Assembly: GCA_964016885.1 (NCBI GenBank) | Contig: OZ024743.1 | Coordinates: 196,230,001-196,294,000, forward strand | DNA from: Eledone cirrhosa | Lineage: Eukaryota | DNA length: 64,000 nucleotides | Direction of reading: 5' to 3' | In this document: in pieces, positions 26,273 to 27,624 of the stretch | Position numbering within the stretch: the stretch's first letter is position 1 | How the letters are laid out: each line of letters starts with the position of its first letter | The notes under the pieces: model-generated | Databases searched by the model: none | What the model was told of the DNA's origin: nothing | The model's input: the letters and a program-made list of their open reading frames with translations, nothing else | Position numbers and translations under genes: made by a program

Positions 26273-27624
26273 ATTCCACCGTTGCGAAACTTATTTGGGT
26301 TTCGAGGTTCAAATTCGTCTACAGAACAGGTTTGAATTTTGAAATTTAAATATGTCCAGGAATCATGGCCGTTGCCAATATAATCTTGTCTTTATTGACT
26401 TGTATCGAGACAGACAAATTGTATTCACTTTTATTAGTTTATTTCATTAATGGCTAACTTTTTCTGTTGCAATGTAAACACATTTCGTGTTTATCATATA
26501 CTTTAAATGTATTAACTGCTCGGAAGAGCCCCTTCCTGGAGCTTAATTATTGTAAACGACTGAGAGTTTATTCTCAAAATATAATATAATGTATAGCTCC
26601 TTTATTGTAAGAGCTGATCCTTAATCCTGCATAAGCGGCTGTTATTTCTAGCACCGTGAATGTGGGATAGCTAGTTTTGGCCTGCCTACCCACGTGTAGT
26701 CAGACCTGCAAAATTTTTGATGTGAGATAGACTAATCTTACTGGATTCCTGTTGATAAGCACAGAAGATTGGGACATTTCACTCTTTTATTTCTATTCCA
26801 TTTCGATTCTCTTTATTTTTCAATTTACATTCCACCGTTGCGAAACTTATTTGGGTTTCGAGGTTCAAATTCGTCTACAGAACAGGTTTGAATTTTGAAA
26901 TTTAAATATGTCCAGGAATCATGGCCGTTGCCAATATAATCTTGTCTTTATTGACTTGTATCGAGACAGACAAATTGTATTCACTTTTATTAGTTTATTT
27001 CATTAATGGCTAACTTTGTCTGTTGCAATGTAAACACATTTCGTGTTTATCATATACTTTAAATGTATTAACTGCTCGGAAGAGCCCCTTCCTGGAGCTT
27101 AATTATTGTAAACGACTGAGAGTTTATTCTCAAAATATAATATAATGTATAGCTCCTTTATTGTAAGAGCTGATCCTTAATCCTGCATAAGCGGCTGTTA
27201 TTTCTAGCACCGTGAATGTGGGATAGCTAGTTTTGGCCTGCCTACCCACGTGTAGTCAGACCTGCAAAATTTTTGATGTGAGATAGACTAATCTTACTGG
27301 ATTCCTGTTGATAAGCACAGAAGATTGGGACATTTCACTCTTTTATTTCTATTCCATTTCGATTCTCTTTATTTTTCAATTTACATTCCACCGTTGCGAA
27401 ACTTATTTGGGTTTCGAGGTTCAAATTCGTCTACAGAACAGGTTTGAATTTTGAAATTTAAATATGTCCAGGAATCATGGCCGTTGCCAATATAATCTTG
27501 TCTTTATTGACTTGTATCGAGACAGACAAATTGTATTCCCTTTTATTAGTTTATTTCATTAATGGCTAACTCTGTCTGTTGCAATGTAAACACATTTCGT
27601 GTTTATCATATACTTTAAATGTAT
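26273..27624 (+). mobile_element. Retrozyme-like tandem array: 556-bp unit x2.4, inserted in (TA)n
   Basis: ATTCCACCGTTGCG at 26273, 26829 and 27385. Units differ at only a few bases. No ORF. Two complete HHR folds. Confidence 0.88.
26744..26920 (+). ncRNA. Large non-canonical type I HHR (U3-A8 core); second copy 27300-27476
   Basis: GAUUCCUG-UUGAUAA-GCA-(77 nt)-UGC-GAAA-C..24-bp hairpin..GUC/CAGGAAUC. Perfect 8-bp stem I. Predicted cuts after 26912 and 27468. Confidence 0.82.

Follow-up and report, generated by a model that had tools for sequence, protein, structure and literature searches.

A dispersed 556-bp hammerhead repeat family with Penelope-type insertion ends in Eledone cirrhosa

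Metazoan non-LTR retrozymes, as described from coral, mussel and axolotl, consist of non-coding tandem units that each carry a type I hammerhead, and it is established that such tandem retrozymes yield circular RNAs (PMC7229834). They lie in dispersed short arrays and co-occur with Penelope-like elements (PMC7229834; 10.64898/2026.07.22.740005), and a Penelope origin has been argued in a vertebrate survey with units of 51-972 bp (10.64898/2026.07.22.740005). So far, the mobilisation of animal retrozymes by Penelope-like elements has rested on this co-occurrence and on the similarity of terminal repeats. Penelope-like elements themselves are known for 5′ truncation, partial tandems, an inverted 5′ arm, a tail of 30-40 nt at one end and a bias towards (TA)n (PMC8557442, PMC3846280). 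During their insertion both target strands are cut and extended; reverse transcription starts at two internal sites, and the spacing of these sites equals the tail (PMC11167929). Circular templates have been proposed earlier for Penelope tandems (PMC4209133).

The array described here lies in Eledone cirrhosa, within a stretch of 64,000 nucleotides (contig OZ024743.1) that we call the window. Its family is like the metazoan retrozymes in its non-coding tandem units with type I hammerheads, its dispersed short arrays and its company of Penelope-like elements, and the 556-bp unit falls within the range of the vertebrate survey, although 556 nt exceeds the 170-400 nt of the invertebrate circles tested so far. 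It differs in its hammerhead, which is 177 nt long with stem III extended by 24 bp and a loop II of 77 nt, where the compared retrozymes have a stem III of 1-2 bp, and in its U3-A8 core. Moreover, the two-end, inverted signature presented below is not reported in the covered parts of the retrozyme papers (PMC7229834; 10.64898/2026.07.22.740005), whereas circles and cleavage have been shown for those retrozymes and are predicted for the present family. With endonuclease-bearing Penelope-like elements it shares 5′ truncation, partial tandems, a head-to-head arm, an optional 3′ tail and (TA)n targets (PMC11167929, PMC8557442, PMC3846280), as well as a type I hammerhead, of which the U3-A8 variant is known from Schistosoma (PMC4209133). 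Unlike them, it has no ORF, its tail measures 83 nt instead of 30-40 nt, and its hammerhead can fold as a monomer, the Penelope type being minimal and dimer-dependent. Hammerheads of fungal and protist Penelope elements are likewise of type I, with a long stem III and no obvious contact between loops I and II, but sit in endonuclease-less telomeric elements outside animals, and are likened here by architecture (PMC4209133). The pDo500 satellite of Dolichopoda resembles the family in its repeat of about 500 bp, its conserved hammerhead and its compensatory changes, yet it carries a 49-nt canonical motif in a true satellite, in contrast to short dispersed arrays with retrotransposition ends (PMC2837043). 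Plant LTR retrozymes are set apart by their LTRs and type III hammerhead, the present motif being of type I in tandem units.

The assignment of the family to the non-LTR retrozymes, or non-autonomous Penelope class, is well supported, and its component features are individually known. What makes it valuable is a strict rule of two ends, a preserved series of C-G, U.G and U-A core pairs, and core mutants that have expanded. No description of this family appeared among the papers listed by a literature search, and supplements, Repbase or Dfam may hold prior annotation.

The array and its large hammerhead

An earlier note on the window had claimed a 2.4-unit, 556-bp tandem array in (TA)n, which agrees with what was found. 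The array (26273-27624, 1352 bp) contains 2.43 units, and at period 556 only 3 of 796 compared positions mismatch (26462/27018, 26983/27539 and 27016/27572), the runner-up period reaching only 31%. It is flanked by (TA)n-rich runs (26030-26274 and 27622-27648), and such flanks would mask any target-site duplication at the insertions. The longest stop-free stretch in a dimer of the unit is 55 codons, and the unit lacks the RT plus GIY-YIG ORF of an autonomous Penelope-like element. Unit position 1 corresponds to window position 26913, and the array is composed as follows.

26030..26272, no strand: (TA)n-rich left flank, the target run
26273..26356, plus strand: 5′-truncated partial unit (unit positions 473-556), with the 3′ half of the hammerhead and no core
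26357..26912, plus strand: complete 556-bp unit 1, with no catalytic half upstream of its 5′ cut site
26744..26920, plus strand: type I hammerhead motif 1, predicted cut after 26912
26759..26841, plus strand: stem II of 3 bp and the U-rich loop of 77 nt that it closes
26848..26908, plus strand: extension of stem III by 24 bp, 8 of them G.U
26913..27468, plus strand: complete unit 2, the predicted 556-nt monomer between both cut sites
27069..27151 (also 26513-26595), plus strand: 83-nt "tail", bounded by the two fixed 3′ ends of the family at unit positions 156 and ~239
27300..27476, plus strand: type I hammerhead motif 2, same sequence as motif 1, predicted cut after 27468
27469..27624, plus strand: terminal partial unit, last base at unit position 156 (proximal fixed 3′ end)
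27625..27648, no strand: (TA)n right flank

Every detail of the hammerhead that had been listed from the letters (stem I, core, 77-nt loop, 24-bp helix with 8 G.U pairs, GUC) is present. Stem I consists of 8 Watson-Crick pairs (26744-51/26913-20) and is followed by the core UUGAUAA (26752-58) with its U3-A8 pair and by a stem II of 3 bp (26759-61/26839-41) that closes 77 nt. GAAA stands at 26842-45, C26846 pairs with G26910, and the GUC ends at 26912, with the second one at 27468. The stem III extension (26848-71/26885-908) comprises 24 bp, 16 of them Watson-Crick and 8 G.U, with no mismatch. Three stems thus surround a conserved core with stem I open, which is the type I arrangement, and two consecutive complete motifs stand in the tandem non-coding units. 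A loose hammerhead descriptor matched none of 3000 dinucleotide shuffles of one unit.

All deviations from Watson-Crick pairing in stem III are of one kind (G.U against A.C, 8:0, one-sided p=0.004), and together with the two-sided covariation described below this points to selection on the plus-strand RNA, as the earlier note had maintained. That the hammerhead fold is selected on this strand is supported, with self-cleavage as a prediction from the sequence. A-to-I editing was considered as a source of the G.U pairs and is not supported: private changes have no strand bias (19 are A>G and 18 T>C), and G-C alternates with G.U at 3 of the 8 pairs.

Folding of the whole motif gives a z of only -1.87. 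The predicted pair probability is 0.99 for stem I and 0.98 for the stem III extension, with about 0.01 for stem II, and the catalytic fold is predicted to lie 2.8 kcal/mol above the minimum and to make up about 0.2% of the ensemble. Given this energy gap and the weak stem II, fast cleavage of the naked RNA is not predicted. Comparison with Rfam yielded no hammerhead match for the unit (E<=5), nor in four loci at the gathering threshold, which is expected because the motif carries two large insertions; it escapes descriptor and Rfam searches, the earlier note having expected CUGANGA or short-stem searches to miss it, and families of hammerheads with large loops are overlooked by such searches.

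The family and its insertion ends

The earlier note had asked whether copies are dispersed through the genome and whether their stems covary. The core motif has 468 exact matches in the 3.0-Gb genome (0 for the reversed control) and the 3′ arm of stem III has 1181, so that hundreds of copies are scattered; all of the first 100 of the 468 core-motif matches are U3-A8. Sister families extend down to about 60-70% identity, among them family B with a unit of 547 bp and family C with one of 524-531 bp, both of which have the long stem III in common and carry C3-G8 cores and other stem I sequences. The stem III extension is the most conserved sequence among sister families (77-88%, against 41-80% in other long regions). 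Loop II measures about 35-65 nt in relatives, about 35 nt in older ones and 77 nt here, having grown by local duplication.

Covariation was assessed in 26 representatives from 30 clusters, after omission of two parsing artefacts, one mis-trimmed row and one with an insertion. Cells are paired in 95.8%, against 92.2% in shuffles, and changes on both sides are seen at 5 of 8 stem I pairs, at the 3-8 pair and at 2 of 3 stem II pairs; the rows are related, and the pair changes therefore represent few independent events. In stem III, 14 of 26 pairs show one-sided changes only, alternating between G.U and A-U or G-C. The 3-8 pair is U-A in 19 of 26 rows and C-G in 7, with U.G in subfamilies elsewhere. 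U3-A8, which the earlier note took for a compensatory variant, is already published, being known in natural hammerheads (PMC3088659) and in about 1300 Schistosoma motifs of Penelope type (PMC4209133), and is found in an intact autonomous element of the same genome as well (L081, see below). When the core is masked, a tree of 57 rows thinned from 118 distinct segments has multicopy U3.G8 subfamilies as a grade, placed between the families with C3-G8 and those with U3-A8. The trees are unrooted, L224 sits on a long branch, and the label of L189 is a parsing error. Short words shared with the L081-type hammerhead had raised the idea that U3-A8 was taken over from it, which was abandoned because the tree gives a U.G path within the family.

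Insertion ends were surveyed in 55 insertions, namely every locus represented in the first 100 of 389 matches of a 27-nt motif. Whereas the 5′ ends of their arms are scattered, reflecting variable truncation, 90 of the 96 arms end at unit positions 143-162 or 230-245, around two points 83 bases apart (~156 and ~239); 39 end exactly at 156 and 42 at 239, and 85 of the 90 arms with typical ends run into (TA)n. Head-to-head inverted insertions account for 38 of the 55, and 33 of these pair a 156 end with a 239 end, while none has the same end twice and the other 5 have one atypical end. Family B behaves alike, its ends at 184 and 266 being 82 nt apart and 16 of 19 two-armed loci having one of each and none two of the same. 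Family C has ends at 185 and 255, 70 nt apart, with a possible exception at L215 (255 and 262). A contig of an independent run (X4 record 9) also has an inverted joint and a 239 end. The copy in the window is a single-arm insertion of the 156 type, whose end would mark the start of reverse transcription.

Fixed 3′ ends, an optional tail, variable 5′ ends, partial tandems and an inverted arm are what a non-autonomous Penelope element should leave. From the two fixed ends and the inverted arms with one of each, we infer Penelope-type mobilisation with an 83-nt tail, and the element is very probably a non-autonomous retrozyme mobilised in this way. The mobilisation by Penelope-type machinery that the earlier note had proposed is thereby supported (33 of 38), and the Penelope tail signature is borne by the insertion ends themselves, with one of each in 33 of 33 typical inverted insertions. 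The same note had taken the fractional copy number as a sign of a circle, an argument that is not conclusive, since a fixed internal 3′ end and variable 5′ truncation suffice to produce it.

At L087 (6390-7060) a family C arm is joined head-to-head to an arm of another hammerhead family with no (TA)n spacer, possibly one insertion from two RNAs. At L005 (1491) the 5′ end of a copy lies 10 nt upstream of the cut site, joined to a tRNA-like short repeat, and at L012 (1220-1406) a copy is interrupted by a different short repeat.

Core variants and the nature of the template

Hammerhead catalysis is weakened by A9U and by U3.G8, and both kinds of lineage are multicopy here. The A9U core variant has 142 motif matches against the 468 of the U3-A8 core motif, is present in 15 of the 56 loci whose core is covered, with 8 of 38 when the motif-picked set is taken by itself, and its loci form two separately supported clades, having expanded twice. 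The longest array of the motif-picked sample belongs to it (1941 bp, with a four-crossing arm); A9U arrays are not significantly longer (p=0.24). U3.G8 together with a mismatched 10.1-11.1 pair, the first of stem II, occurs in 68 of the first 100 of 141 pattern matches, and these subfamilies are tandem and two-ended as well. Such a spread is not predicted by the obligatory cleave-and-circularise model with which the array had been interpreted at the outset. The paired core and G10.1-C11.1 are, on the other hand, present in descendants on both sides, so that long-term selection for the fold is likely. As read from these sequences, single rounds may tolerate weak cleavage and cleavage may be dispensable in a given round, which agrees with in vitro data on a Penelope element that inserts equally with dead hammerheads and uses unprocessed RNA (PMC11167929). 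In a mutational scan, the 3-8 pair was rescued only by a G-C swap and not by U-A, within the construct of that study (PMC9901934). Since natural variants of the core (C-G, U.G, U-A and A9U) are matched in near-equal context, the role of the hammerhead becomes testable.

The cut site is crossed by 63 of 96 arms and twice or more by 12 of 96, which means that the template was uncut, rejoined or jumped. Divergence within an insertion is 1.19% between tandem copies and 1.14% between opposite arms, against about 3.3% between loci (73 loci, pairs not being independent). Non-consensus alleles fixed in all copies of a locus number 253, of which 20 are private, and 230 alleles vary within a locus, 131 of them private and 28 common to at least 3 loci. 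The sharing of alleles within insertions fits one variant per insertion and a monomer bottleneck. A circle gives this simply; gene conversion, or a small number of homogeneous source arrays, could mimic it. We regard a template derived from a monomer as likely, and lean slightly towards its having been specifically a circular RNA.

The explanation that we favour, with some reserve, is that the array represents a single insertion from a non-coding, dispersed family, likely made in trans by a Penelope-like RT and endonuclease and probably on a hammerhead-released, circularised RNA of unit length. The plus-strand transcript would be cut after each GUC, probably slowly or with the help of protein, and joined as a 556-nt circle. 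The enzyme would then cut the (TA)n run, and, judging from the ends, each DNA strand would prime copying from a separate internal site, unit position 156 for one strand and ~239 for its partner. The DNA pattern itself shows that copying goes back past the cut site over varying lengths, giving arms of more than one unit. It also shows the two arms meeting head-to-head, with ragged 5′ ends at the joint, or a single arm kept as in the window. Cleavage looks selected in the long term and may be needless in some rounds.

Mobilisation by Penelope could also proceed from an uncut multimeric or read-through transcript, the hammerhead being accessory (in RNA turnover, in defining the 5′ end or as a protein-binding fold) and the homogeneity coming from the few source arrays or the gene conversion just mentioned. 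This we hold to be unlikely, although several observations speak for it: the A9U and U3.G8/mismatch lineages expanded and still give multi-unit arms, stem II is weak, hammerhead mutants had no effect on insertion in vitro (PMC11167929), and 8 of 9 Xenopus retrozyme dimers stayed uncleaved in vitro (10.64898/2026.07.22.740005). Arms in the same register are also slightly closer (0.99%) than those across registers (1.35%), and at L003, L008 and L132 there are no same-register differences and a few cross-register ones, which leans towards linear multimers, but the effect is not significant (Wilcoxon p=0.25, 22 loci). However, linear templates cannot lengthen arrays, and along the ladder of subfamilies new alleles and indels became fixed in all units; moreover, no long source array appears among the matches listed, which cover part of the genome and in which the longest array has about 5 units, and the trunk of the tree retains or regains a paired core.

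Linear monomers freed by the hammerhead might give tandem arms with no covalent circle, if the RT, on reaching the 5′ end of one monomer, jumped to the 3′ end of that monomer or of an identical one. The monomer bottleneck is compatible with this, and there is an excess of 5′ ends immediately downstream of the cut site (24 at unit positions 1-44, 8.6 expected, p about 1e-5), as if some templates ended there. Yet none of the 96 arms starts at positions 1-5 or exactly at the cut site, the enrichment at 6-44 fits run-off at a cut end and stalling before stable stems equally, a second cluster at 107-154 bears no relation to the cut, and alignments over the cut-site junctions are gapless in the arms examined; such jumping is thus considered improbable. 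Far less probable still is a DNA minisatellite or decayed palindrome spread by local duplication, with a chance resemblance to a hammerhead. The repeat is indeed AT-rich, lies in a microsatellite-rich region and has no Rfam match, but short arrays dispersed in the hundreds, their 3′ ends fixed and their 5′ ends ragged, the two-sided covariation and the absence of descriptor matches among 3000 shuffles stand against it, the distribution of ends and the covariation contradicting it directly.

Returning to a hammerhead-derived circle, a more elaborate and rather doubtful version can be drawn. Penelope machinery might use two active sites simultaneously on a single small circular RNA, with each strand of the target tied to its own start (156 or 239, never the same), and the giant hammerhead would be only weakly or cooperatively active. 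The change from C3-G8 to U3-A8 would have passed by way of U.G intermediates that were themselves amplified, and A9U lineages with a dead core would persist on residual cleavage or on cleavage in trans through the long, conserved stem III. If true, the genome would be a fossil record of the Penelope two-strand mechanism and of a ribozyme crossing a compensatory valley. The unit also offers a protein-free template of 556 nt whose start sites are mapped, on which the choice between a circle and an uncut multimer can be tested.

Autonomous elements and neighbouring repeats

An uninterrupted 938-aa frame with RT plus GIY-YIG lies between hammerhead-bearing repeats at L081 (2809-5622, minus strand), in a partial tandem of roughly 5 kb whose repeats carry a minimal U3-A8 hammerhead; judged by its frame, it is a candidate for an active autonomous element. 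A search of 50 loci, from 150 listed of 10596 GIY-YIG candidates, and of the window found no autonomous family that shares sequence with the unit, and alignments with the flanks of minimal hammerheads did not reach significance (best z 2.4, and at most 1.1 for the 556-bp unit). Nor did the 5′ flanks of 23 single-arm copies have a partner in common, and a pattern search with a short loop gave one match, in an unrelated family. Core matches at about 2.5-kb spacing (L061 and L062) were considered as repeats flanking an ORF and proved to be whole insertions copied by local duplication; unit matches near GIY-YIG loci, tried as a link to a partner, were independent insertions.

Within the window, a Penelope-like 3′ fragment (25434-26030, minus strand; end of a GIY-YIG frame and terminal repeat) adjoins the array across the (TA)n run and belongs to the family of 8025-9074 (minus strand). 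Broken Penelope-like RT/GIY-YIG fragments of at least 3 families lie at 3997-5966 (plus), 8025-9074 (minus) and 49687-50490 (minus). The minimal hammerhead of a Penelope terminal repeat has five copies in the window, at 9043 and 52323 (plus) and at 7811, 13796 and 61604 (minus). Hammerhead-like motifs with a CUGANGA core and a short stem III are located at 13372-13438, 35737-35802 and 590-632 (plus) and at 10302-10368 and 21847 (minus). Elsewhere, L217 (1000-1800) holds another U3-A8 hammerhead repeat, with a spacing of about 300 bp, a short loop II, a palindromic stem III and an inverted arm. The window further contains 60-bp and 81-bp tandem repeats and an Ala/Arg-rich repetitive frame (37904-38249; 29205-30083; 60031-60570, plus), the frame presumably recalling the N-termini of Helitrons.
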